From the NCBI GenBank assembly GCA_964608675.1, contig CAZSOZ010000001.1, positions 32,001 through 96,000 on the forward strand: 64,000 nt of DNA. The letters run 5' to 3'. Made by a program: the position numbers and the translations under genes. The notes below the pieces were generated by a model. It did not search any database and was not told the origin of the DNA. It was given only the letters and a program-made list of their open reading frames with translations. The DNA comes from an uncultured archaeon (lineage in GTDB: Archaea > Iainarchaeota > Iainarchaeia > Iainarchaeales > 1-14-0-10-31-34). Of the stretch, positions 1,492-60,987 are shown in pieces (within the stretch, counting starts at the first letter, position 1; each line of letters opens with the position of its first letter).

Positions 1492-2445
1492 ATGAATGAA
1501 TTAATTTACTTTGGTTTTTCTCTTGGTTTAAGCTTGATTGGAATTCATTTTTTTGAAAAATACAGCAGAAAAAAAGATTTTTTTTTAGGAATAGACATAA
1601 ACAAAAAACACCAAAATAAAACCCCTGAAGCAACAGGAATAATTTTATTGTTTGTTTTATGGGTTTCCGTTCTTGCAGTAAATTTAATTGAAGGAATTAA
1701 AATTGAAAGCTTTTATTGGATGGCATTAATAACTGTTTTTTCTTTAGTCGGATTTGTGGATGACACTGCAAGCAAATGGAAAAAAAATCCTTTAGGATGG
1801 AAAGAAAGAGCTTTGCCTGTAATACTTGCATCAATTGCTTTTGGCTGGCTTGTTTCAGGAGAAATTATTTCAGCTGTAATAATTGGATTATTTGCAGGAG
1901 TTTTTTCTTCTTTTCATAACAGTTTTGCTGGATTAAACGGATGGGAAGTTGGCTCAAGTTATTTGATAGCGTTATTCACTGCGTTTTTATTAATAGGTTC
2001 AGGTTTGTTTATTTATTCAATTATAGTTTTAGGAATAATACTTGGATTACTTATATTTAATGTTTATCCTGCACGGGTTTTTCCCGGCGATTCAGGAACA
2101 CTTTTAATAGGAAGTTCTTTAAGTGGATTAATTGCATTAACTTTGCAGAAAGAATTGTTGGTTGTTTTTGCTTTATTTTATGTTCCTCATTTAATTGATT
2201 TTTTACTTAAATTAATCACAAATCCAAAAGATATGACTCAAGCCAAAACCAAACCATACAAAGTGCTTGAAAATGAAAGACTTGGAATTCCAGATTACCC
2301 AAAAAAAACAAAATACGATTTTGCAAAATTAATCATAAAATTTTTTGGACCCTTAAAAGAATGGAAAATTGTTTTAATTATTTGGATTTTAACTGCATTA
2401 AATTCAATAATTTGGTTGATTGCATTCAATAAACTTGTTCTTTGA
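1492..2445 (+). CDS. MraY/GPT-family (Glycos_transf_4) polyprenyl-phosphate HexNAc-1-phosphate transferase, AglH/Alg7-like
   Basis: Polytopic membrane protein; GIDINK, GFVDD, NSFAGLNG, NVYPARVFPGDSGT motifs. Confidence 0.85.
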   Translation: MNELIYFGFSLGLSLIGIHFFEKYSRKKDFFLGIDINKKHQNKTPEATGIILLFVLWVSVLAVNLIEGIKIESFYWMALITVFSLVGFVDDTASKWKKNPLGWKERALPVILASIAFGWLVSGEIISAVIIGLFAGVFSSFHNSFAGLNGWEVGSSYLIALFTAFLLIGSGLFIYSIIVLGIILGLLIFNVYPARVFPGDSGTLLIGSSLSGLIALTLQKELLVVFALFYVPHLIDFLLKLITNPKDMTQAKTKPYKVLENERLGIPDYPKKTKYDFAKLIIKFFGPLKEWKIVLIIWILTALNSIIWLIAFNKLVL

Positions 2446-3430
2446 TTTCAATTCTGAATACAGCAGCAATCAGCAAACTGAAAACTGTGGGAATAACCAG
2501 CCTTACAAAATCAAATATAATTAATACTGCACCTATTTCAGGCAAAGAAAGAGTTTCATTTACAAACCAAGGAATAGAAAGAAACGTTAATCCAGCAAAT
2601 TCAACTAAACCAATGCCTCTAGGAAGAAAAGGAGTTCTTTCCAAAACAGAAATAATAATAAACAAAACAATTAAAGGAACAAAATCCAAAGAAATTTTAA
2701 CAGAAAAAAAACTGAACTGAAAAGCAAGAAATTCAAAACAATAAGAAATCAAAGAAATTAATAATACAAGGAAAAAAGACTTTAAAGTTAAATTCTTGAG
2801 GTTGCAGGAATAAGCAGTAAAAAATTTTTCAATTGAAGCAAACAAACTAATGTCTTTGGAAAAAAAATTCAAAAAAGAAATAATAATTGAACCGCATTTA
2901 TTGTTTAAAGGCAAAACAAAAAAAAGGATTGCAATAGTTATCACAAAAAAACCGCTTAATAAAGCAAAAAAAGTTGTGGAATCCAGTTCAGCTTTAGAAA
3001 TAAAAAAAATTAAAATAAAAACAAAAAAAATTGCAAGAATAATAAATTTTGTGCCTTTTGCAATCATAGAAGAAGAAATTGATTCATCATAAGGAACTTT
3101 AAAAAAACTCTTTAATTTCATTGAACGCAAAGCTTCTGCTCCAAGCTGAACAGGAGTTAACGCTCCATACAAGGAACTGAAACCAACAATAAAAAGATTA
3201 GAATAAGAAACACTTGATTTTTTTCTTATTAAAAAAGCCCAAGAAATAAGCCAAACAAAAACTGAAATAAGAAAAAAAAAGGCAGACAAAAAAAATAACA
3301 GCCAGTCAATTTTAAGGAGTTCCAAATGAGCATTAGTCCACCATAAAACAATTGAAATTACTGCAACAAAAAAAACCAGAGAAAAAATACTTTTTCTTAT
3401 GAAATTTTTCATCAAAAAAAACCTTTTCAA
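2426..3430 (-). CDS. Lysylphosphatidylglycerol-synthase-TM (UPF0104) flippase-like membrane protein
   Basis: Many TM helices; TPVQLGAEALR and PFLPRGIGLVE motifs; alternative ATG start at 3412. Confidence 0.75.
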   Translation of the reverse strand: MKRFFLMKNFIRKSIFSLVFFVAVISIVLWWTNAHLELLKIDWLLFFLSAFFFLISVFVWLISWAFLIRKKSSVSYSNLFIVGFSSLYGALTPVQLGAEALRSMKLKSFFKVPYDESISSSMIAKGTKFIILAIFFVFILIFFISKAELDSTTFFALLSGFFVITIAILFFVLPLNNKCGSIIISFLNFFSKDISLFASIEKFFTAYSCNLKNLTLKSFFLVLLISLISYCFEFLAFQFSFFSVKISLDFVPLIVLFIIISVLERTPFLPRGIGLVEFAGLTFLSIPWFVNETLSLPEIGAVLIIFDFVRLVIPTVFSLLIAAVFRIEIKEQVY

Positions 3431-4044
3431 GAAGTAACAGAATGCAGTATTTCATTAATTTTGTTGATTATTTGATCTGAATCAGAATACATTGCAACAA
3501 ACAACTGCTGTAAAACAAGTGTTCCATCTTCAGATTTGGTTGTATTAATTACAAAAGAATTATTATACATTTCAACAGAAGGCTTAGATGAATTTTCTTC
3601 CGGAAATTTAACTACAAATTTAAAATCACTGGAATTTTCAAGAAAACTTTTGCATTGCCTTTTAGTTAACTGCTCGTTTTTTGATTTGTCTCCAAAATTA
3701 GTCTGACAATAATCTAAATTATTATTTTCATTCAAAACATAAACAACAGAAGAAATGTTTTTGTTTGTTGCAGAAAGAATTCCTGAAACCAAAGCAATCT
3801 GCTTTGAAACTTCAACTAAATTGCTTTTATCTGCATTAGTTTCAGAAACAAAAATAAATGAATTTCTTTCTTTAACTGTTTCAGAAAAATATTTTTGAGG
3901 AGAAGAAAAAGAATCAGAATAAAAAATTATTCCGTTTATTTCCTCTGAATAAACAAACTCTTGTTCAGGATAAAAAAAATAAATGCCTGCAAAAACAAAA
4001 ATAAAAAAAATCAAAATTAATGCAATTAAATTATTTTTTTCCAT
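3427..4044 (-). CDS. Membrane-anchored extracellular hypothetical protein
   Basis: N-terminal TM helix then soluble domain with two Cys; ATG start MEKNN. Confidence 0.6.
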   Translation of the reverse strand: MEKNNLIALILIFFIFVFAGIYFFYPEQEFVYSEEINGIIFYSDSFSSPQKYFSETVKERNSFIFVSETNADKSNLVEVSKQIALVSGILSATNKNISSVVYVLNENNNLDYCQTNFGDKSKNEQLTKRQCKSFLENSSDFKFVVKFPEENSSKPSVEMYNNSFVINTTKSEDGTLVLQQLFVAMYSDSDQIINKINEILHSVTS

Positions 4045-4140
4045 AAAAATAAAATTCAACAAAAAAGATTTAAATCAATTGAATTAAAAAACAAAAAAAC
4101 TAAATAAGTTTAAAAAAAATTAAAAAAAAAAGAAAAAGAA

Positions 4141-4165: not shown

Positions 4166-6988
4166 TTACAGGTTTTCTATTTCGTTGATTAACATTTGTG
4201 CTGCTGTAGATGTGTCTGCTGCCTTGTATCCTGCAACTACAATGTCTCCTGTATCTGCTTCTTCAAGTACGTAGTCTCCGTTTTTGGTCAGCAAGTCCTG
4301 CAAAGTTTGTCCGCCTACTGTGACTTCTCCTGCCAAAGCATTGACTTTCCATCCACCCACAATAATGTGTTTGGCTGCTGAAGCTCCGTCGTCGTACTTT
4401 ACTAAGTTTCCTGCAGGCTGTAAAGCCTTATAGGTTGTTGGAGAAACTGTACATGTTCCTGTTGCATCTCCTCCACCAGTACAAGTTGCATTATAGGTGA
4501 CTGCGTTAACAGTTACTTTTGTTCCACCTGTAGTGCTTCCTGTGTCTCCTTCAGCGATTGTTAAGTCTTCTCCGCCTGTGACTTCAGTTGAAGTTCCTGC
4601 TCCTGAAACCAAGACTTCCATTTGAGGTCTGTTTTCAGGCAAGGTTATTTTGAATTCGTGGTTGTCTAAGACAATTTTTGAACCAAAGTCAGTGTATACC
4701 CATGAAGGATAAGTTGAAGTACTGCTTTCGCTTAATGCATAGGCACCGTAGTTGTAGTCGGCTTCATAACTGTAGTTGCTTAACTGTGTGTTAGGCAATG
4801 CAATTAAGTTGCCTGTTCCTGTATCAACAAACCAGTTTCCATCGTAAGTTGAGTCTTCGTCTTCGTCAAACTGGAATCTTGCAACAAAGTATTCGTTTGC
4901 GTTGTAGTTTGTGTCACCTTCCATTTTAACTGGCAAGTACTGGCTGTGCGGTACATAGAAAGGATAAGCTGATGTTCCTGCTGGAATATGTGTTAATACT
5001 CCTCCGCTTGCGTTCATGTCCTCTGTAGTGTCTGTTCCAACTAATTTAATGTGTTTAGTGTATTGTGTGGTTAATGCCTGTGCATCAAAGAACAACCATA
5101 AGTGTCCTGTTGCACCGTCTGCTGCTTCGTCTAGCATGAACTCATAGTCGTGTGTTATTCCGCTTGCTCCTTCAAATGAAATCGGGGCGTCAGCTGTAAA
5201 GTTCTGGTCTACATAGTATATTTCTTGTATTAAGGTTCCGCTTGAAGTGTCTTTCTTGAAGGTAACGTTTCCGTCAGCTGTCAAGTAAACACAGACGTTT
5301 CCGTCTCCCATTCCAGAGAAAGTAAACTGCATTCCGTTGATGTCAACGTTGGCGTCTCCTACTCTATAGTAGTCGTTTCCAATGAATGCATTAAAGTCTC
5401 CTCCGTCATAAAAAACAGAATGCAAATTGATTGGCTGTCCGTTAATGTAGTTTCCGTCACCAATACAGTCATATCTTGTTCCAGAACCGTCTGCTGAAGT
5501 AGTTGCTCTTACGTTTACATCAGCTGCATTCAATCTATACCAGATTGTTTGGGAATCAATACTTAAAGTACCGCTTCCATTACTTCCTGAAACAGACTGT
5601 GCCATTTTATATAAAGGAACAGTGTGTTCTGCTTCATAAGTTGAATCCTTGTAAGTTAATTCTCCGTCTTTGAATTCAACTACTGTTGTTCTTTCTGTTT
5701 TGCTTACTCCGTTGAATTCAGGCAGCTGCAATCCAAGCAATTCCAAAGTGCCTATGTCTTCTAGGAAACCTGCTTCTTCTCCTACCAGTAATGCATCTGT
5801 TCCAACAAAATCATAAGTTGACTTGTTCTGGATGTTAACGTCTTTCAGGTAGTTTCCGTCAAAGTTTAATTTTACTTCCCAGTCATAATCTTCATCCTGC
5901 AGGGTTGCATCATAAGGATATCCTTTATCGTTGTATAATTTGACTCTTGCATTTCCTACAAGAATTGTTGGAGTAAAGATTTCTGCATCTGAAACAACTG
6001 TTTTCAGGATTTCACTGATGTTAACCAAAGTGTTTAAAACTGGTTCTCCTGTGTTGTCATCGTAGAATACAACATCTCCTGTTGAAAACAAGTCTGTTTT
6101 AACCAGGGTTCCATCTTCTTTGTACAAAGACAAAGTTATTTTTTGTGTTGAACCTGAAGTTCCTCCTGGTCCGACTTCAATGTAGTAGGTTTCTCCGTCA
6201 TATCCTTCTAAGTCAGGTATTCTGTCTCCTTCACTGTACTGTGTTTCACCTGATGTTTTAATTAATTCAACATAAGTTGTAGTGACTGTTTTGACTAAGT
6301 AGTCGTCTCCAAATAAAGGAATTCTTACGTTGTCGTTTCCGTCGTCAGAAAAGTTTACTGTTGAACTCAAAGATTCATACCTGGGAATTCCTGAACCTAA
6401 ATTTAAATTATACTTTAGGTTTCCTGCAGTTATTACTCCAACTAAGTCTTTAACTGTTATTCTGTCAAATTTTGCGTCAACAGTAAAAAACAGTCTTTCC
6501 TGAATTGAAGTAGTATAGGAAGTTCCGTTGTATGTGTATGTGTCTGCTCCATTATAATACAATGATGGAAGATTTGAGTTAGTTACTGACTTACTGTTAA
6601 AATTGGCTTCTTGTCCTGATGTTTCTGAATTCAAATTGTTATAGAAAGTTTTTCCTCCTGTAACACTGGTTGTTCCGCCGACAGTTAAATCAACTGTTAA
6701 GTCTGTGACTGAAGGGGTTGCTCCTCCTGAACAATCTGCAGGACCAACTGCAACTTCACTGGTTGTATAGGCTTTTTGTCCGACTGCTACTGCAATGTTT
6801 CCTGCCCATACTGCATCGCTTACAGCTGCTTGTTTTCCAACAACAACATCAACCAAAGGACTTCCAGAACTTGAAATTAAGTCTGATTTTGTCAGGTCGA
6901 TTGCTGAAGCCATTGGAGCCAAAGCAGAACCAACTAAAGCTGCTCCTGCGGCAACTGCCACGAGCTTCTTTATGTTCAAATTTCTCAT
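4166..6988 (-). CDS. S-layer protein (Methanococcales/Thermococcales-type N- and C-terminal domains)
   Basis: Signal MRNLNIKKLVAVAAGAALVG; VVVGKQAAVSDAVWAGNIA; C-terminal IIVGGWKVNAL and IVVAGYKAADT motifs; acidic and Thr/Gly-rich; C-ending codon bias of a highly expressed gene; strong SD. Confidence 0.88.
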   Translation of the reverse strand: MRNLNIKKLVAVAAGAALVGSALAPMASAIDLTKSDLISSSGSPLVDVVVGKQAAVSDAVWAGNIAVAVGQKAYTTSEVAVGPADCSGGATPSVTDLTVDLTVGGTTSVTGGKTFYNNLNSETSGQEANFNSKSVTNSNLPSLYYNGADTYTYNGTSYTTSIQERLFFTVDAKFDRITVKDLVGVITAGNLKYNLNLGSGIPRYESLSSTVNFSDDGNDNVRIPLFGDDYLVKTVTTTYVELIKTSGETQYSEGDRIPDLEGYDGETYYIEVGPGGTSGSTQKITLSLYKEDGTLVKTDLFSTGDVVFYDDNTGEPVLNTLVNISEILKTVVSDAEIFTPTILVGNARVKLYNDKGYPYDATLQDEDYDWEVKLNFDGNYLKDVNIQNKSTYDFVGTDALLVGEEAGFLEDIGTLELLGLQLPEFNGVSKTERTTVVEFKDGELTYKDSTYEAEHTVPLYKMAQSVSGSNGSGTLSIDSQTIWYRLNAADVNVRATTSADGSGTRYDCIGDGNYINGQPINLHSVFYDGGDFNAFIGNDYYRVGDANVDINGMQFTFSGMGDGNVCVYLTADGNVTFKKDTSSGTLIQEIYYVDQNFTADAPISFEGASGITHDYEFMLDEAADGATGHLWLFFDAQALTTQYTKHIKLVGTDTTEDMNASGGVLTHIPAGTSAYPFYVPHSQYLPVKMEGDTNYNANEYFVARFQFDEDEDSTYDGNWFVDTGTGNLIALPNTQLSNYSYEADYNYGAYALSESSTSTYPSWVYTDFGSKIVLDNHEFKITLPENRPQMEVLVSGAGTSTEVTGGEDLTIAEGDTGSTTGGTKVTVNAVTYNATCTGGGDATGTCTVSPTTYKALQPAGNLVKYDDGASAAKHIIVGGWKVNALAGEVTVGGQTLQDLLTKNGDYVLEEADTGDIVVAGYKAADTSTAAQMLINEIENL

Positions 6989-15621: not shown

Positions 15622-16347
15622 TTATAAAATCATGTGGGCTAAATGGAATTCAATCCTGCTTCCTCCGATTGAATAAGAAACTTTCATAGGTGCATCGCCT
15701 TTTAATTCCAATTTGATTTTTGAATCAGAGTCTGCTTCTTTTACGATGTTGGCCAGAAAATTCAAGGAGTATTTGCTTACTACCTCTGAATTAGTTTTAA
15801 CTATAACTTTTTTTGCTTCTTTTGCAACAGTTTTTAAGGTTCCGGAAGAACCTCTGGCTTCAATCATAAACTGATTAGATTTGGCTCTCAATATAACTGA
15901 ACTGCCAAATAATGAAGCATCTTTTAATGCTTCTTTGAACATTTTTGCATTAATTTCAATTACTGCATCAAATTTTGTTGAGGGAACATTGATTTCCTGC
16001 TCAGAAACATCAATTAAAGGAAGCTTAAAGTTTCTGGAAAGCTCTCCTGAAAAATGAATTGACATTTCGTTTTCAGTTAAATCCAAAACCATTTTGTCAT
16101 TAGGAAGAATCCTTGACATGATTTTATTTAATTCAACTAAATCCACTCCAATATAAGTGGGTTCAATTAAAAACTTGTCAAAAGAACTTTTTGCAATAGA
16201 ATAATCCACTAAAACTATTTGGGATGGATCGATTGCCTTAAAGCTTATTCCTGAATCATTAAAACGAAAATTTCCCTCTGAAATAAAAGTTGAAATAGCA
16301 TTAATCGCTTTAGCCCAGGATTCTGTTTTTTTTAATTCAATTGCCAT
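15622..16347 (-). CDS. pcn: PCNA sliding clamp, divergent paralog
   Basis: KAIDPSQIVLVD, IGVDL, FKLPLID, KYSLNFL, DAPMKVSY; ends FHLAHMIL; SD GGGGGA. Confidence 0.9.
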   Translation of the reverse strand: MAIELKKTESWAKAINAISTFISEGNFRFNDSGISFKAIDPSQIVLVDYSIAKSSFDKFLIEPTYIGVDLVELNKIMSRILPNDKMVLDLTENEMSIHFSGELSRNFKLPLIDVSEQEINVPSTKFDAVIEINAKMFKEALKDASLFGSSVILRAKSNQFMIEARGSSGTLKTVAKEAKKVIVKTNSEVVSKYSLNFLANIVKEADSDSKIKLELKGDAPMKVSYSIGGSRIEFHLAHMIL

Positions 16348-16423
16348 TAAATCCCCCCGTAGACTGCAAAAAAGTCCTTCCAAGCATATTATACTTCATT
16401 AATCCTTTTAAATTATTCTAAAT

Positions 16424-18481: not shown

Positions 18482-19471
18482 TCAAGCTCCTTTTGGAAGA
18501 ACCATAACCAAAAAAAACAAGTATAATAAAATCAGAGCAATTCCTTCTGATTTTTTTATCTGCAAATCACTCCAAGCAAACAATAAAAAAATTGCAGTCA
18601 AAATCAAAAGAAAGGGGCCGAGCAAAAAAATAGTGTACTCTGAAACAATTAAAGGACTAACCAAAGAAGAAAATCCTCCTACAAAAAGAATATTTAAAAT
18701 ATTGCTTCCAACAATGTTTCCTATTAACATGTTATGAAAGCCTTTGTTTAAGGAAATTATTGAAACCACTAATTCAGGAAGAGAAGTTCCTAAAGCAATC
18801 AAAGTTAATCCCACAAAAGTTTCAGTTAAACCAAAAAAGCCTGCAATATTCAACGCAGAATCCAAAACAAAATTTGCTCCAAAATACAATCCTGCAATAG
18901 AAATCAAAAAAACAAGAGTTTCTCCAATTAAAATTTTCTTAAAGTTTTCTTTTACTAAATGAAGAAAATGCCTGAAATTAGATAAATGCTCTGTATATAA
19001 TTTTACTTTAAATAATTCCTTGAACTGCATTCTAAACCTGAACATAAAAAAAATGTAAGCCAAAAACAAAAAAATCAGCAGAAGGGAATCAGAAAAAGAA
19101 ATAATAAAGTCAGACAAAAGAATATAAAAAAGAATTGTTGTTCCCATCAAAACATAGCATTCTCTTTCAAACAATCTTTTTTCTATTTTAAGAGTATGAA
19201 AAATTGCAGAAATCCCCAAAACCAAAGCAAGGTTGGAAATATTGCTTCCAATAATGTTTCCAATAACAATTCCCGGATTATTGTTCCAGGAAGCAACTAA
19301 GCCTGAAGCAAACTCCGGCAGAGAAGTTCCCACAGAAACAATAGTTAACCCAATAACTAATTCTGATACCCCAAAAATTTTAGCTAAACGGGAAGCAGAA
19401 ACAACAAACAAATCGCTGGATTTCACTAACAAAAAAACTCCTAAAATAAACAAAGCAAAAAATTCAATCAT
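18482..19471 (-). CDS. Calcium/sodium antiporter (CaCA, YrbG-like)
   Basis: Two alpha-repeats GTSLPE...GNIIGSN and GTSLPE...GNIVGSN. Confidence 0.93.
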   Translation of the reverse strand: MIEFFALFILGVFLLVKSSDLFVVSASRLAKIFGVSELVIGLTIVSVGTSLPEFASGLVASWNNNPGIVIGNIIGSNISNLALVLGISAIFHTLKIEKRLFERECYVLMGTTILFYILLSDFIISFSDSLLLIFLFLAYIFFMFRFRMQFKELFKVKLYTEHLSNFRHFLHLVKENFKKILIGETLVFLISIAGLYFGANFVLDSALNIAGFFGLTETFVGLTLIALGTSLPELVVSIISLNKGFHNMLIGNIVGSNILNILFVGGFSSLVSPLIVSEYTIFLLGPFLLILTAIFLLFAWSDLQIKKSEGIALILLYLFFLVMVLPKGA

Positions 19472-19514: not shown

Positions 19515-20261
19515 TTAACTTGATTCAATTCTTGGAGCCAAAAAATATTCTAAAACTGCTTTGCCTATTCCATAAGTTATTTTAACAGGAGCATTGCTCT
19601 TCAAAGACAATTCAACTTCAGTGTCAGCTGAAGCAGACTTCATCATATCCTGCAGGTAATCTAAAGGAAACATTGCAAAGCATTCTTTTTTTGCATTTAA
19701 TTCCTTTAAGTTTTTGTCGTCTTTGGTTATTTCATTAACTGATTCTCCTTTAGATGAACTTGATTTAATAAAAAAGTTTTTTGAAGTAACCCCTAAAGTG
19801 ACATGAGTTGAAACCAAAGAAGAATCCTTTAATCCGTCCTGAATTAAATTTGCTTTTGCTTTAATTACTGCATCAAATTCAACTTTTGGAGTAGGCAGGT
19901 CAGCAGAAGAAACATCAATTAAAGGAACAGAAAAATTTCTGATTGAACCAGCCTGAAACTGAATTTTAAGTCTTGATTCTTTTTCATTTAATTCCAATAA
20001 AAGTTTTTCTCCTGACTTGCTTCTGTTCATTACCTGGCTTAAATAATCCAAATCAATTCCAATTTTGGTTTCTGATTCAATTTCATATTCAGAAAAAGCT
20101 TCCTTTGGCATTTTAAAATCAATCATTGAAATCTGGCTTGGATCAGTTGCCTTTAATTTTAATCCGTCTTTTGAAATAATTAATTCTGCTTCATCAATTA
20201 AAACAGAAATAGCATCAACTGCTTTCTTGAATTCTACTGCATTATCTAAAACTAACTTCAT
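19515..20261 (-). CDS. pcn: PCNA sliding clamp, canonical-looking paralog
   Basis: KATDPSQISMID, IGIDL, FSVPLID, FPLDYL, NAPVKITY, YFLAPRIE; SD AGGTGA. Confidence 0.93.
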   Translation of the reverse strand: MKLVLDNAVEFKKAVDAISVLIDEAELIISKDGLKLKATDPSQISMIDFKMPKEAFSEYEIESETKIGIDLDYLSQVMNRSKSGEKLLLELNEKESRLKIQFQAGSIRNFSVPLIDVSSADLPTPKVEFDAVIKAKANLIQDGLKDSSLVSTHVTLGVTSKNFFIKSSSSKGESVNEITKDDKNLKELNAKKECFAMFPLDYLQDMMKSASADTEVELSLKSNAPVKITYGIGKAVLEYFLAPRIESS

Positions 20262-33677: not shown

Positions 33678-34973
33678 ATGAAAAAAATATTTTTAGTTAT
33701 TGTATTAATTTTTTTGCTTTCAAATGCTTTTTCTGCAGGAATACAAAAAAATTCAATTAACATAATTGTAGACAAAGAAGGAACTTCATTAATTGAAGAA
33801 AACTATTATGTTTCATTTGAAGAAAAAGAACTTGAGTTATTCAAGGAAAGCATTTCAAACGGATTAAATCAGGAAATCCTGCAGTCATTCAGTTTGGAGA
33901 TAGAGCCAAAGCTTGAAAACACTCAGGCAATAATTTCGTTTGAAGAACCTGGAGAAAACAAAATCATTAAATTGAATTATTTTTCAAACGGATTGTTTTC
34001 AGTTAAAAACAAAATTACTTTCAATGAAGTTTCATTAAATACAGCAAAATTTTCTTTTTTGTTTTCAGGACAAAAAGCTGTTTTTCCTGAAAATTTTTCA
34101 TTAAGGTTTGTTCTTCCACGAGAAGCAAAAAATATTTCTGTTTCTCCGGAAACAAATATTTTGTCAAATACCCTTGAATGGAAAGGACTGTTAATAACTG
34201 AAACCCTTGAACTTTCATACGAAATTCCAAAAGAACCCGAACAAATAAAAATAAGAAAAATAAACATTAAAATAAATGTAAATGAAAACGGTTTTGCTGA
34301 AATTTCAGAAAAATATTTTTTTGATTTCAGAAACAACGAAGAACTGGAATATTTTGTAGAAACAGCAAAAAAAAATGGTTCAAGTTTATTGAGCTGGAAT
34401 GCTTTTGACAAAAGAATTTTTCCTCATATAGGGGTTGATGAATTTGATACAAAAAATGCAACAGTTGAATTCATCGAAAAAGGATTGACTGACAGCTACT
34501 TAAATATTTCTTATGAAAATAAAAGCCCCTTATTTATTGAAGAAAAAGAAAGAAGCGGAAGATTTGTTGAATGGAAATTTAATTCAAAAAAATTAAACAG
34601 CCTTATTTCAAGAGGAGTAATAATTCTTCCGGAAAACATGTCAATAGAAATTATTCTGCCTTCAAATGCAGAAATAAAAGAAAGCAGTATTGAAACACAA
34701 AACGGAAAAATTGTCTGGGAAGGCTACAAAACAATAAGTCAAATAAAAATTGTTTATATAATGAAAGAAAATATTGCGCCTGCATTCAATTTATCTTTAA
34801 TGATTCAAAACCTTCTTTCAAACAAAGAAAGTATTGCTTTTTTAATTGCTGTTATTGCAGTTATTGGAATACTTCTTTCAATAAAAAAGAAAAGCATAAC
34901 AGCAAAAATAGATGAATTCATTATAAATAATTCTAAAATAGAAGAAAGAGAAGAAATAGATTTAGACAACTAA
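33678..34973 (+). CDS. Secreted, C-terminally anchored protein with two tandem homologous beta-rich domains
   Basis: Signal peptide, internal duplication, C-terminal TM helix. Confidence 0.7.
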   Translation: MKKIFLVIVLIFLLSNAFSAGIQKNSINIIVDKEGTSLIEENYYVSFEEKELELFKESISNGLNQEILQSFSLEIEPKLENTQAIISFEEPGENKIIKLNYFSNGLFSVKNKITFNEVSLNTAKFSFLFSGQKAVFPENFSLRFVLPREAKNISVSPETNILSNTLEWKGLLITETLELSYEIPKEPEQIKIRKINIKINVNENGFAEISEKYFFDFRNNEELEYFVETAKKNGSSLLSWNAFDKRIFPHIGVDEFDTKNATVEFIEKGLTDSYLNISYENKSPLFIEEKERSGRFVEWKFNSKKLNSLISRGVIILPENMSIEIILPSNAEIKESSIETQNGKIVWEGYKTISQIKIVYIMKENIAPAFNLSLMIQNLLSNKESIAFLIAVIAVIGILLSIKKKSITAKIDEFIINNSKIEEREEIDLDN

Positions 34974-59946: not shown

Positions 59947-60987
59947 ATGAACAATAAAACCATTGCTTTTATTCTGCTAATATTTTTGTTTGCTTTAATT
60001 AATTCAGTTCAAGCAGACTCCAAAACCTGCATTGAAGGAGATACTCAAATTTGCAATACCAGCCAAGGTTGTGAGTTAATTCAAACCTGCTATAAAGGAA
60101 ACTGGACTCCTCCCTGCAATGACACAAAAATCTGTACAACAGATGACGGCTGTTCTGGAACACAAACCTGTGTTAAAGCAAAATGGGGAAACTGTGTTAA
60201 AGATGACCCTTCATGCGGTTTAAAAGTTTCAATTGTTTCTCCTTCAAACGAAGACGTATATGTAATCAGTTCAAAAATTGAATTCAAATCAAATATTGAA
60301 AGCCAAGGAAACGATTATTCAGTTGAATGGGATTCAAATGCAAACGGAAAATTTTCAGTTGACGAAAATTTTGATTACTCTGGATTAAGCATTGGAGACC
60401 ATAACATTACTTTAACAGGAACTTTTGCTTCAGGAGAAACTCCAACAACAAAAACTGATTCAATTCAAATAAGCGTTATTCCGATTCCTCAAGATGCTGT
60501 AAAAACCAGTGGATTTGAAGTAATAAATCAAACAAACCCTGGCCAAAAAATAACTGAAGAAGACACAATAGAAATAAACACAACAGTATCAAATCTTACA
60601 AGACAACAAATTAATACAGAAACAAGCTTAAAAATAATTGATGCTGAAAGCGGAACCCAAATGTTTTTAGACAACAAAAATCATTTACTAGAAGGACAAG
60701 GCGGATTGGGGGGAAACGACACAGTAAACATTAAATATACAATTAAATTAAGTGAATTTAACATTACCCTAGGAAACTATAAAATAATTTTTGATGTAAA
60801 AAAAGTGCTTAACGAACAAAACACAGAAAATAATCAAAAAACAGAAATCATTACTGTGTTAAAGCCTTCAAAAGAAATGAATTTAAATGAGTTTTCTGTT
60901 TTAATTCTGCCTGTACTGTTGATTTCAATAATAATTATTCTGAAAAAAGAAAAAATAAAAAAAGCAATTAAAAAAAAGAAAAAATAA
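59947..60987 (+). CDS. Cell-surface protein with tandem Cys-rich repeats, Ig/PKD- and CARDB-like domains and a C-terminal TM anchor
   Basis: Signal peptide; TQICNTSQGC..IQTC..GNW and TKICTTDDGC..TQTC..KW; LSIGDHNITL; EQNTENNQ; TM plus poly-Lys tail. Confidence 0.7.
   Translation: MNNKTIAFILLIFLFALINSVQADSKTCIEGDTQICNTSQGCELIQTCYKGNWTPPCNDTKICTTDDGCSGTQTCVKAKWGNCVKDDPSCGLKVSIVSPSNEDVYVISSKIEFKSNIESQGNDYSVEWDSNANGKFSVDENFDYSGLSIGDHNITLTGTFASGETPTTKTDSIQISVIPIPQDAVKTSGFEVINQTNPGQKITEEDTIEINTTVSNLTRQQINTETSLKIIDAESGTQMFLDNKNHLLEGQGGLGGNDTVNIKYTIKLSEFNITLGNYKIIFDVKKVLNEQNTENNQKTEIITVLKPSKEMNLNEFSVLILPVLLISIIIILKKEKIKKAIKKKKK

Follow-up and report, generated by a model that had tools for sequence, protein, structure and literature searches.

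The S-layer protein encoded in the window, a 64-kb stretch of the genome of an uncultured archaeon, contains an excess of Asp-x-Asn (D-x-N) motifs that is real and that is an inherited property of its S-layer family, the whole excess being confined to about 18 fixed alignment columns. These motifs probably are position-specific structural Asp/Asn pairs at tight turns or strand edges, which possibly serve also as cation ligands.

The protein (940 aa) is encoded on the minus strand at 4166..6988 (window positions, as are all coordinates given here), in a frame of the ORF list whose stop codon occupies 4166-4168. A GT4-family glycosyltransferase gene is found 1.7 kb away from it. The protein passes the Pfam cut-off for S_layer_C (PF05124; 46.1 bits for a threshold of 23.9, envelope aa 40-937) and that of TIGR01564 (S_layer_MJ; 40.7 bits for a threshold of 25, over model positions 1-84 of 571 only), which on sequence grounds would make it an archaeal S-layer protein of the Methanococcales type; several of the 52 homologues found bear the name S-layer protein. 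A putative signal peptide, read from the translation, covers about aa 1-29 (MRNLNIKKLVAVAAGAALVGSALAPMASA; 6902..6988, minus strand), a stretch that is hydrophobic and signal-like and modelled with pLDDT below 50. A family profile matched PDB 9fsa_A through two query stretches, 40-73 and 855-950 (E-value 4.6e-8 for the whole chain), and assigns a predicted N-terminal half of an anchor/dimerisation domain to aa 30-78 (6755..6901, minus strand; 9fsa_A residues 15-48) and a predicted C-terminal half to aa 851-940 (4169..4438, minus strand; 9fsa_A residues 52-149). Because the S_layer_C envelope extends from aa 40 to aa 937, the anchor domain appears to be split by a central insert. The 9FSA entry is described as the anchor domain of the Methanococcus voltae S-layer protein, made of aa 24-75 and 484-576 (PMC11410804). 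The C-terminal half is preceded by a Thr/Gly-rich linker of low model confidence (aa 801-850; 4439..4588, minus strand; successive pLDDT blocks of 53, 61, 54, 38, and 39). Over its central 770 residues, where the D-x-N-rich domain lies, the protein corresponds to no Pfam family and has no PDB sequence match.

The first-pass annotation had counted 16 D-x-N Asn between 4748 and 6343, where an Asp content of about 8% would predict about five, and a recount bears this out: exactly 16 of the 59 Asn have Asp at −2, all 16 four-residue strings are identical to those listed, and the first Asp codon and the last +1 codon delimit nt 6343..4748. The protein contains 77 Asp (8.2%) and 39 Lys, and composition-preserving shuffles give a mean of 4.83 motifs; in the comparison with shuffles that the annotation had named as a check, none of 20,000 reached 16. 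Also as described there, 12 of the 20 Asn of the central segment (nt 4748-5521, aa 490-747) are D-x-N, and Ser/Thr at +2 is scarce (3/16 only: N574, N596, and N659). The +1 residue is Y, I, V, A, F, or W in 13 of the 16 motifs. As a control against post hoc choice of the motif, we ranked 1,600 residue-pair/gap combinations, among which D-x-N came first (Poisson P = 4.6e-5, Bonferroni-corrected 0.07); a pair equally extreme, whatever its nature, occurred in one of 300 shuffles. The excess also survived a control for local composition, since 9 of the 13 Asn in aa 484-660 are D-x-N when 1.47 would be expected (P = 2e-5). Canonical N-x-S/T sequons are at chance level in the same protein (10, x not being Pro, vs. 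10.4 expected).

The excess recurs throughout the family. Each of the 37 aligned homologues (31-76% identity) carries D-x-N at 2.0-3.8x expectation; pooling 141 full-length members gave 1,462 motifs versus 642 expected, with 120 of the 141 above 1.5x, and the same level was exceeded by all 69 S-layer ORFs of 80 related loci. The enrichment is family-wide in the S-layer proteins of DPANN archaea (Iainarchaeum/Micrarchaeota type), where it amounts to 2.3-2.5x, whereas 798 cytoplasmic ORFs show none (1.14x). At P < 1e-3, 20 of the 69 S-layer ORFs are enriched, two of 112 secreted-like ORFs, and none of the 1,005 others, be they cytoplasmic (0/798), membrane (0/127), or other-TM (0/80) ORFs. Once the two outliers are set aside, the secreted-like ORFs (1.10x) equal the cytoplasmic ones; one of the outliers resembles a phage tail fibre, which we report as a lead only. 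Membrane ORFs as a class stand at 1.49x (85 vs. 56.9), which we would tentatively attribute to compositional patchiness. Two other probable surface proteins of the window have 0 and 3 D-x-N (0.8 and 1.8 expected) but 9 and 10 N-x-S/T (5.3 and 5.6 expected). Across the S-layer family the N-x-S/T ratio is 1.15, and Ser/Thr at +2 accompanies 337 of the 1,462 D-x-N (0.233, for an S+T background of 0.189). Neither the sibling pairs N-x-D (0.80), N-x-N (0.98), S-x-N (0.92), and T-x-N (0.82) nor D-x-G (0.76) and D-x-D (0.89) are in excess, and E-x-N is depleted (0.78).

The distribution of the motifs along the alignment is highly uneven. The 471 D-x-N of the 37 homologues occupy only 77 columns, 18 of which are filled in at least 10 of the 37 sequences, and in columns filled in 25% of the sequences or fewer the motif is no more frequent than expected (130 vs. 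126.8, 1.03x). By comparison, the 496 N-x-S/T motifs are widely dispersed: they fill 183 columns, and 104 of these are singletons. Because the excess arises from about 18 fixed, conserved positions of beta domains, a part in the fold is likelier than a new sugar-attachment signal. We examined substitutions in a 109-sequence alignment, whose cells are phylogenetically non-independent. Where the motif Asp is lost, short residues (N, S, T, and G) take its place and Glu seldom does: Glu accounts for 40 of 841 cells, as against 376 of 3,241 at other Asp positions (Fisher P = 4e-10), whereas Asn accounts for 160 of the 841. At the six best-conserved sites, the residue most commonly replacing Asn is Asp (46/196), followed by Thr (41/196); the exchange to Asp reaches 16 of 109 sequences at each of sites 513 and 551, and is absent or rare at sites 574 and 596, the two best conserved. 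Overall, the Asn of the 16 motif sites are not significantly better conserved than other Asn of the protein (mean 0.34 vs. 0.28, P = 0.18).

The best-conserved pairs, all read on the minus strand and counted over the same 37 homologues, are as follows, with secondary structures taken from DSSP of the predicted models. D490-V-N492 (5513..5521) has both residues in 26 sequences. D511-G-N513 (5450..5458; both in 28, Tyr at +1 in 27) belongs to a D-G-N-Y-[LI]-N-G stretch with an invariant N516 and a G517 whose conservation is 90% or more. D549-I-N551 (5336..5344; both in 30) is followed by G552 (Gly at +1 in 34), and N551-G552 is modelled as the turn between strands 548-550 and 553-560. D572-G573-N574 (5267..5275; both in 34, Gly at x in 35) would form a tight turn between strands 567-571 and 573-579; N574 is also part of a canonical sequon, N-V-T, with Cys or Val at +1 in 30 homologues and Ser/Thr at +2 in 19. 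The same is true of D594-Q-N596 (5201..5209; both in 34), whose sequon is N-F-T and where Ser/Thr at +2 is found in 21. D716-G-N718 (4835..4843; both in 25) lies at the start of predicted strand 717-722. Apart from these pairs, D216-G-N-D-N220 (6329..6343), which the model puts in the loop separating strand 212-214 from strand 222-225, falls within a conserved block, F-x-D-[DG]-x-[ND]-D-N-[VI]-x-[IV]-P-[FL]-[FL]-G, of which D219 and G227 are invariant and F213, D215, and P224 at least 90% conserved.

The whole protein is confidently modelled as all-beta (pLDDT 80.7). Nine of the 16 motifs fall within a predicted Asp/Asn/Gly-rich beta domain, the fourth of the model (aa 484-660; 5009..5539, minus strand; delimited from the domain model and composition), which contains 20 Asp, 5 Glu, 13 Asn, and 20 Gly, has a net charge of −17, and is modelled as all-beta with short strands (pLDDT 88.6, pTM 0.78). 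A Pfam search with this domain returned no match, nor did a fold search, in which the best hits had E-values of 0.21 in the PDB and 0.11 in BFVD. With the whole model, the top Foldseek matches were the DUF1608 structures 3u2h and 3u2g (E-values 3.1e-7 and 9.3e-7, probability 1.00; TMt 0.46 and 0.41, rmsd about 9 Å); the matching part lies outside aa 484-660, and the Pfam DUF1608 model did not match the S-layer protein. In the models, D572-G573 and N551-G552 each fall in a two-residue link from one strand to the next. A general arrangement with Asp in a loop and the +1 residue in a strand is seen at 5 of the 16 motifs, not significantly above a baseline of 22% (P = 0.27), and at 8 of 33 other Asn.

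We therefore favour, without certainty, a structural role. The central beta-rich domains contain about 18 such Asp(i)/Asn(i+2) pairs, half of which fall in the Asp-rich domain at aa 484-660, and these would act as fold-determining elements. The conserved pairs would sit in or beside tight beta-turns with conserved Gly (D-G-N, [LI]-N-G) or, alternatively, along a single face of short edge strands, in which positions i and i+2 project to the same side. The carboxylate of Asp might bond to the carboxamide of Asn, or either of them to main-chain amides, and thereby lock the geometry of the turn; the pairs may additionally help to retain divalent cations in a surface protein as acidic as this one. 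Tight beta-hairpin turns use Asn-Gly or Asp-Gly (type I'), and Asx-turns are likewise known. The present sites seem to share this feature, inasmuch as N516-G517, N551-G552, and D572-G573 are modelled in or beside short inter-strand breaks, but they differ from the rule, which covers only the N-G and D-G dipeptides, in needing Asp specifically two residues before Asn. Because N-x-D, N-x-N, S-x-N, T-x-N, and D-x-G are not enriched, the strict order of Asp, then Asn, is not explained by a generic turn-former model.

A primary role of the pairs as ligands of Ca2+ or another divalent cation, which would rigidify the central domains or bridge lattice subunits, is a serious possibility that we nevertheless hold to be rather unlikely. 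The strong acidity of the domain at aa 484-660 and its preference for Asp over Glu are in keeping with such a role, as are the replacement of motif Asp by short, ligand-type N, S, T, and G and seldom by Glu, the exchange of Asn for Asp at sites 513 and 551, and the restriction of strong enrichment to extracellular proteins; however, Asn is never or rarely exchanged for Asp at sites 574 and 596, and D-x-D and N-x-D are not enriched. Known Ca2+ loops include the EF-hand-like DxDxDG, the dockerin/integrin D-x-N-x-D-G, and the cadherin interdomain D-x-N-D-N. Like these acidic loops, our protein has Asp and Asn one residue apart in loops of an extracellular beta-protein, and it contains one D-G-N-D-N block with an invariant Asp and one N-V-D-I-N-G (aa 547-552). 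The former, D216-G-N-D-N220, followed by P224 in an inter-strand loop, recalls cadherin D-x-N-D-N, although its Pro/Phe spacing differs from that of the cadherin motif; the latter is the only instance of [DN]-x-[DN]-x-[DN]-G in the protein (N547-G552), and its first position is kept in 4 of 37 homologues. Unlike in established Ca2+-loop domains, the complete patterns are seldom encountered among family members ([DN]-x-[DN]-x-[DN]-G 41 times, D-x-N-x-D-G nine times, and D-x-N-D-N 19 times in 141 proteins), and no Ca2+-binding family was recovered by Pfam, PDB sequence, or fold searches. As far as their sequence goes, the motif sites do not appear to follow the DxDxDG/EF-hand-like pattern. The repeated Ca2+-binding turn that the annotation had offered as a fallback comes near to our preferred reading, with Ca2+ binding itself a possible addition; DxDxDG-type patterns are rare and D-x-D is not in excess. 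Other S-layers and archaeal cannulae have been described as assembling in a cation-dependent manner, and the ligands reported in one such account are Asp/Glu and backbone carbonyls (PMC12518558).

The principal proposal of the annotation was that D-x-N is a lineage-specific signal for glycosylation or another modification, with the −2 acid in place of the +2 hydroxyl; in these DPANN archaea such a non-canonical N-glycosylation (or other Asn-modification) signal would have to be recognised by a divergent AglB or by a further transferase. We find the proposal unsupported and regard it as very improbable. It draws on the near confinement of the enrichment to extracellular proteins, on the chance level of canonical sequons in the S-layer protein, and on the GT4-family gene in its vicinity. 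Moreover, SLP_Mh, a related DPANN S-layer protein with the same architecture, is reported to be PAS-positive and to run heavier than calculated by about 30 kDa, and three confident sites outside N-x-S/T are given for Haloferax volcanii in PMC8241124, which also cites work on Halobacterium Asn-2. Yet none of the five listed non-canonical Hfx. volcanii glycopeptides has Asp at −2 of Asn, and PMC7226087 describes the WWD pocket, by which the +2 hydroxyl is recognised, as conserved in PglB, AglB, and Stt3. The pattern of conservation is also adverse: outside the fixed columns D-x-N falls to 1.03x, whereas N-x-S/T sites drift; Asp is the commonest substitute for Asn at the six conserved sites; and neighbours that a sequon would not need are conserved (Gly in 35/37 and 34/37, Tyr in 27/37, N516, and G517). 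Secreted-like ORFs other than the two outliers show no excess over cytoplasmic ones, and the two other probable surface proteins of the window are rich in N-x-S/T and not in D-x-N. The motif shares its −2 Asp with the PglB sequon D/E-x-N-x-S/T, which D-G-N-V-T, D-Q-N-F-T, and D-M-N-A-S fit fully, but 13 of the 16 motifs lack Ser/Thr at +2, Glu is no substitute (E-x-N 0.78, Asp to Glu under-represented) when PglB takes either acid, the positions are fixed, and the host is archaeal. No requirement for an acid at −2 is known for archaeal AglB. The STT3 Pfam family was absent among the 53 window ORFs and the nine scanned of 24 large membrane ORFs of related loci, and W[WFY]D[YWFN]G was found in none of 1,186 ORFs; the sequence covered was the 64-kb window of this genome and 20-kb neighbourhoods of relatives, and AglB may lie elsewhere. 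It is just as doubtful that an unrecognised Asn-modifying enzyme of Iainarchaeota/Micrarchaeota-type DPANN archaea accepts D-x-N, mostly with a hydrophobic residue after it, and reads the −2 Asp instead of the +2 hydroxyl, its sites having become fixed because the glycans are structural. The 10 N-x-S/T sites of the protein are candidate N-glycosylation sites.

Still less probable is that some D-x-N Asn are cross-linked covalently within the molecule, for instance through a Lys-Asn isopeptide for which a nearby Asp would be the catalytic acid. The specificity for residue and order (Asp then Asn, neither Glu nor the reverse) would suit a chemical role, isopeptide bonds have been reported in archaeal thread filaments, and the consensus around site 574 (A-D-G-N-x-x-F-x-K) has a conserved Lys after the Asn, but Asn is freely swapped for Asp, Thr, or Tyr at conserved sites, Lys is scarce (39/940), and neither Pfam nor fold searches revealed similarity to isopeptide-containing domains. 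An origin of the excess in chance or in the mere richness of the protein in Asp and Asn, as the single-protein Bonferroni value and the uneven spread of both residues might suggest, is hardly credible in view of the shuffles and the local-composition control, and is refuted for practical purposes by its recurrence in all 37 aligned homologues and all 69 S-layer ORFs of related loci.

If true, the sequon idea would have amounted to a new rule of protein glycosylation; the evidence points the opposite way, which saves glycoproteomics effort on the wrong sites. The analysis instead defines six to eighteen conserved Asp-x-Asn positions in the S-layer protein, together with an Asp-rich beta domain (aa 484-660), predicted with confidence and lacking any structural neighbour. 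In a large, uncultivated group of ultra-small archaea, whose main surface protein this is and which is represented by 347 representative clusters at an E-value of 0.001 or below, these positions and this domain are natural targets for work on S-layer folding, the need for divalent cations, and assembly. The strict order of Asp and Asn, which tolerates neither Glu nor reversal, is a small structural puzzle in its own right.

With the S-layer proteins of Methanococcales and Thermococcales, the present protein appears to share PF05124, TIGR01564, and both halves of the 9FSA anchor, but its length is about 1.6 times that of the protein from M. voltae (576 aa). Another close system is SLP_Mh of Ca. 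Micrarchaeum harzensis, reported to be glycosylated on the basis of PAS staining and a mass shift, with sites that were predicted by NetNGlyc/NetOGlyc and not mapped (bioRxiv 10.1101/2021.04.28.441871). Compared by description, each is a DPANN S-layer protein with a mass of about 100 kDa that carries TIGR01564-type segments at its two ends. The centre of SLP_Mh is described as related to the Methanosarcina DUF1608 domain, and the top fold matches of the whole model here were the DUF1608 structures 3u2h and 3u2g (TMt 0.46 and 0.41).

The whole D-x-N signal (Asn with Asp at −2) falls in a single gene (window 4166..6988, minus strand), which encodes the 940-aa S-layer protein and, by script count, 59 Asn and 77 Asp (8.2%). 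The first-pass annotation had counted 16 D-x-N Asn by hand, and our scripted recount returned the same number and the identical sixteen four-residue strings, with 12 of the 20 Asn of the central segment (aa 490–747) in this context and Ser or Thr at +2 in 3 of the 16, both as it had reported. The shuffled control that it called for gave a mean of 4.83 motifs, and 16 was reached in none of 20,000 shuffles of the protein. Because D-x-N had been picked after looking, we controlled for this post hoc choice by scoring all 1,600 ordered residue pairs (spacings 1–4): D-x-N was the most enriched of them (Poisson p = 4.6e-5, Bonferroni 0.07), and an equally extreme pair of any kind arose in 1 of 300 shuffled proteins. 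The D-x-N excess is confirmed; the canonical sequon N-x-S/T is at expectation in the same protein (10 vs. 10.4 expected).

The enrichment is a property of the family. All 37 aligned homologues (31–76% identity) carry D-x-N at 2.0–3.8 times expectation, and 141 full-length members pooled contain 1,462 motifs versus 642 expected, with ratios above 1.5 in 120 of them. Among 1,186 ORFs (minimum length 120 aa), called mechanically in the window and in 80 related loci and assigned to classes by a crude hydropathy rule, the 69 S-layer ORFs reach 2.50x (69/69 above 1.5x), versus 1.14x in 798 ORFs lacking hydrophobic segments, 1.35x in 112 secreted-like, 1.49x in 127 multi-TM, and 1.28x in 80 other TM ORFs. 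Taken singly, p < 1e-3 is found for 20 of the 69 S-layer ORFs, for two of the secreted-like ones, and for none of the remaining 1,005. The 53 other ORFs of the window stand at 1.11x, and the secreted-like class minus its two outliers at 1.10x. The first outlier (L017:6770-8392, plus strand), 3.2 kb upstream of the S-layer gene of its locus, encodes a 540-aa Asn/Thr/Gly-rich protein with 14 motifs, mostly D-[VILA]-N, versus 3.0 expected (p = 4e-6). Kinship with the S-layer protein was rejected (hhalign probability 0.1), a PDB sequence search gave no match, and its grouping with phage tail-fibre-like Atlas clusters (scores 0.90–0.91, TM 0.40) is a lead only. The second outlier (L075:7564-9081) has 8 motifs versus 1.8 expected.

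Within the family, the motifs occupy fixed positions. The 471 D-x-N motifs of the 37-sequence alignment are confined to 77 columns; 19 or more sequences share the motif in 7 of these, and 10–18 sequences do so in a further 11. These recurrent columns correspond to query Asn 192, 218, 377, 379, 385, 492, 513, 533, 542, 551, 565, 574, 596, 694, 710, 718, 744, and 746. Columns occupied in at most a quarter of the sequences show no excess (130 motifs vs. 126.8 expected, 1.03x), which rules out a motif count upheld by sequon-like turnover. The 496 N-x-S/T motifs of the same alignment take up 183 columns, 104 of which hold a single motif. Six D-x-N sites keep both residues down to 31% identity: 492 (26/37), 513 (28/37), 551 (30/37), 574 (34/37), 596 (34/37), and 718 (25/37); at the partly conserved site 385, all 12 cases have D and N together. 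Neighbouring residues are also constrained, with Gly at position 573 (D572-G-N574) in 35 of 37 homologues, Gly after N551 in 34, Tyr after N513 in 27, an invariant N516, and a G517 conserved in at least 90%. In a 109-sequence alignment, whose cells share phylogeny and are not independent, Glu stands in for motif Asp in 40 of 841 cells and for other Asp in 376 of 3,241 (p = 4e-10), Asn stands in for motif Asp in 160 of 841, and the commonest replacements of Asn at the six conserved sites are Asp (46/196) and Thr (41); Asn to Asp almost never occurs at sites 574 and 596. Motif Asn and other Asn did not differ significantly in conservation (p = 0.18). The segment holding V-D-I-N-G, A-D-G-N, and Y-Y-x-D-x-N (query aa about 545–600) is missing from the most distant of the aligned homologues (901 aa), so this part of domain 4 behaves as an insertable subdomain.

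Both the order and the identity of the residues matter. Across the family, D-x-N stands at 2.28x and the reversed N-x-D at 0.80; the sibling pairs D-x-D (0.89), N-x-N (0.98), E-x-N (0.78), S-x-N (0.92), and T-x-N (0.82), as well as D-x-G (0.76) and adjacent D-N (0.96), lack any excess. Cytoplasmic ORFs show much the same ratio for D-x-N (1.14) as for N-x-D (1.10). A generic [DNST]-x-[DNST] turn motif is ruled out because the enrichment is limited to the ordered D-x-N pair, and this strict D-then-N order is explained neither by a generic structural role nor by a generic cation role. At +1 of D-x-N, the family shows a 6.4-fold enrichment of Cys (36 cases). In 17 of the 37 homologues, Cys directly follows the Asn of the best-conserved motif (A-D-G-N-x), where this protein has V575 (window 5264-5266); its own Cys include C508 (window 5465-5467) and C566 (window 5291-5293). 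The Cys at position 575 may belong to a disulphide of one clade, with Val instead in this one.

An AlphaFold2 model built with the family alignment (mean pLDDT 80.7, pTM 0.62; 10-residue block means of about 85–96 across most of aa 350–650) is nearly all beta apart from the anchor helices. Its top Foldseek match is the Methanosarcina DUF1608 S-layer domain 3u2h (E 3e-7, TMt 0.46); matches to DDB1 and other beta-propellers were discarded as noise (TM-scores at most 0.10, rmsd above 25 Å). Nine of the 16 motifs, versus 1.47 expected, lie in the Asp-rich beta domain 4 (aa 484–660), which contains 20 Asp, 5 Glu, 13 Asn, and 20 Gly for a net charge of −17 and, modelled alone, reaches pLDDT 88.6 and pTM 0.78. 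Fold searches with this domain gave no match at E ≤ 0.001 in PDB (best 0.21) or BFVD (best 0.11), a feature search of the ESM Atlas gave scores of at most 0.85, none reaching 0.9, and Pfam scans of six sub-regions of the protein returned nothing below E 0.14, domain 4 included. By DSSP, D572-G573 and N551-G552 lie in one- or two-residue breaks between strands of the model. Strand-entry placement was dropped as evidence (5/16 motifs vs. a 22% baseline, p = 0.27; other Asn 8/33), and a looser count of Asn 0–2 residues before a strand showed no difference (11/16 motif vs. 22/41 other Asn). The Thr/Gly/Ser-rich aa 801–850 (window 4439-4588, minus strand), which connect the last beta domain to the C-terminal half of the anchor and are modelled with low confidence, plausibly form a flexible stalk, possibly O-glycosylated.

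On balance, we lean towards reading D-x-N as position-specific Asp/Asn pairs which, placed at turns and edge strands as the models suggest, would lock local geometry. The main rival, dedicated divalent-cation sites, is possible but the less probable of the two: the Asp-rich acidity, the drift of motif substitutions to short side chains, the restriction to extracellular proteins, and a D-G-N-D-N block with an invariant D219 all speak for it, but D-x-D lacks enrichment, the 141 proteins contain few classical DxDxDG patterns (41), and the near absence of Asn to Asp exchange at 574 and 596 is difficult to reconcile with it. Upstream of the S-layer gene, at a distance of about 5–6 kb, some related loci encode a P-type cation-transporting ATPase of about 900 aa (Cation_ATPase_N/C, E1-E2); it was confirmed by Pfam in both loci scanned (L015:1506-4211; L025:1412-4174, minus strand), and ORFs alike in size and position occur in L034, L041, L048, L059, L063, and L067. 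The window itself contains a Na+/Ca2+ exchanger gene (18482-19471). These neighbours are context only and no evidence for Ca2+ binding by the S-layer.

The first-pass annotation had proposed that D-x-N may be a lineage-specific glycosylation or modification sequon in which the −2 acid replaces the +2 hydroxyl, and this proposal is not supported. A PglB-like sequon would accept either acid at −2, but E-x-N is depleted; the x and +1 residues should be free, but are constrained; the acceptor Asn should not be interchangeable with Asp, but is exchanged for it; and positions should drift, as those of N-x-S/T do here, but the excess sits in fixed columns. A review describes the pocket (WWD) for the +2 hydroxyl as conserved across PglB, AglB, and Stt3 (PMC7226087). 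A Haloferax glycoproteome with three confident non-canonical sites lists five non-canonical peptides, and Asp stands at −2 of an Asn in none of them (PMC8241124). From these failed expectations, together with the AglB-pocket and Haloferax comparisons, we consider a sequon very improbable. An STT3 Pfam match was found neither in the 64-kb window nor in the large membrane ORFs scanned from related loci (9 of 24), a WWDYG-like string occurs in none of the 1,186 ORFs, and no AglB was found beside the S-layer gene in the 80 related loci. The contrast between secreted and cytoplasmic proteins is weak evidence either way, being a low-power sequon test because even N-x-S/T is unenriched in secreted-like ORFs (0.99x). 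Better candidates for N-glycosylation than the D-x-N sites, judging from their sequences, are two probable surface proteins (window 33678-34973 and 59947-60987, both plus strand), each with an N-terminal signal-like segment, a C-terminal TM anchor, and no Pfam family, in which N-x-S/T is found 9 versus 5.3 and 10 versus 5.6 expected times, respectively, and a D-x-N excess is absent; the second has a Cys-rich N-terminus.

The S-layer gene is followed directly, on its own strand, by genes for an LPG_synthase_TM-family membrane protein (window 2426-3430, minus strand) and a 211-aa membrane-anchored protein without family (window 3427-4062, minus strand), convergent to which is a GT4-family (Glycos_transf_4) enzyme (window 1492-2445, plus strand). 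The GT4 family includes enzymes that start dolichol-linked glycans, and these genes may form a small cell-surface biogenesis cluster. In five loci, a multi-TM protein of about 773 aa is encoded about 1–1.2 kb downstream of the S-layer gene (L008:5299-7620, L010:7174-9495, L018:14225-16546, L020:13916-16228, and L029:14188-16518, all plus strand). The one scanned, from L008, gave a sub-threshold EpsG match (E 1e-4) and has no WWDYG string; this protein could be an S-layer-linked membrane enzyme resembling a polymerase or a GT-C enzyme. Farther away, two PCNA paralogues (window 15622-16383 and 19515-20261, minus strand) are found no more than 4 kb apart among replication genes, and the window also encodes both primase subunits (small and large), GINS, both RFC subunits (large and small), and Cdc6. 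No tRNA or Rfam RNA was detected in the 64 kb.

The protein matches Pfam S_layer_C (PF05124; 46.1 bits vs. a cut-off of 23.9, envelope aa 40–937) and, over aa 7–87, NCBIfam TIGR01564 (S_layer_MJ). A profile of the 37 homologues matched PDB 9FSA in both halves (E 4.6e-8), so that the termini of the protein form an anchor/dimerisation domain, its halves separated by a beta-rich insert of about 770 residues; the structure in 9FSA, from the Methanococcus voltae S-layer protein, is an anchor/dimerisation domain built from N- and C-terminal segments (PMC11410804). A word-indexed search found 52 homologues, and 347 representative clusters were recovered at E ≤ 0.001. The window is low in GC (about 30%) and encodes PCNA, primase, GINS, RFC, Cdc6, and LonB, and the homologues and related loci are labelled Iainarchaeum/Diapherotrites, Micrarchaeota, or "archaeon"; host gene set and labels thus identify a DPANN S-layer protein. 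Four contigs with clear homologues (L008, L010, L011, and L034) are filed in Chloroflexi/Chloroflexota or Thaumarchaeota MAGs, probably through binning contamination rather than gene transfer.

We know of no description of the D-x-N pattern or of the aa 484–660 domain, our literature searches not having been aimed at the motif itself; to our knowledge, this is an undescribed domain in an otherwise known S-layer family. The parts of a Pyrobaculum S-layer preprint and of a cannulae paper available to us have no bearing on this family. The pattern of D-x-N differs from that of classical Ca2+ loops, and it departs from the PglB sequon in both defining features tested. The terminal domain places the protein in the Methanococcales-type S-layer family, and the protein also belongs to the DPANN S-layer group known from Micrarchaeota: its architecture is like that of the Micrarchaeum harzensis S-layer protein, which the available part of a preprint shows to be glycosylated, at sites that are only predicted (bioRxiv 10.1101/2021.04.28.441871).
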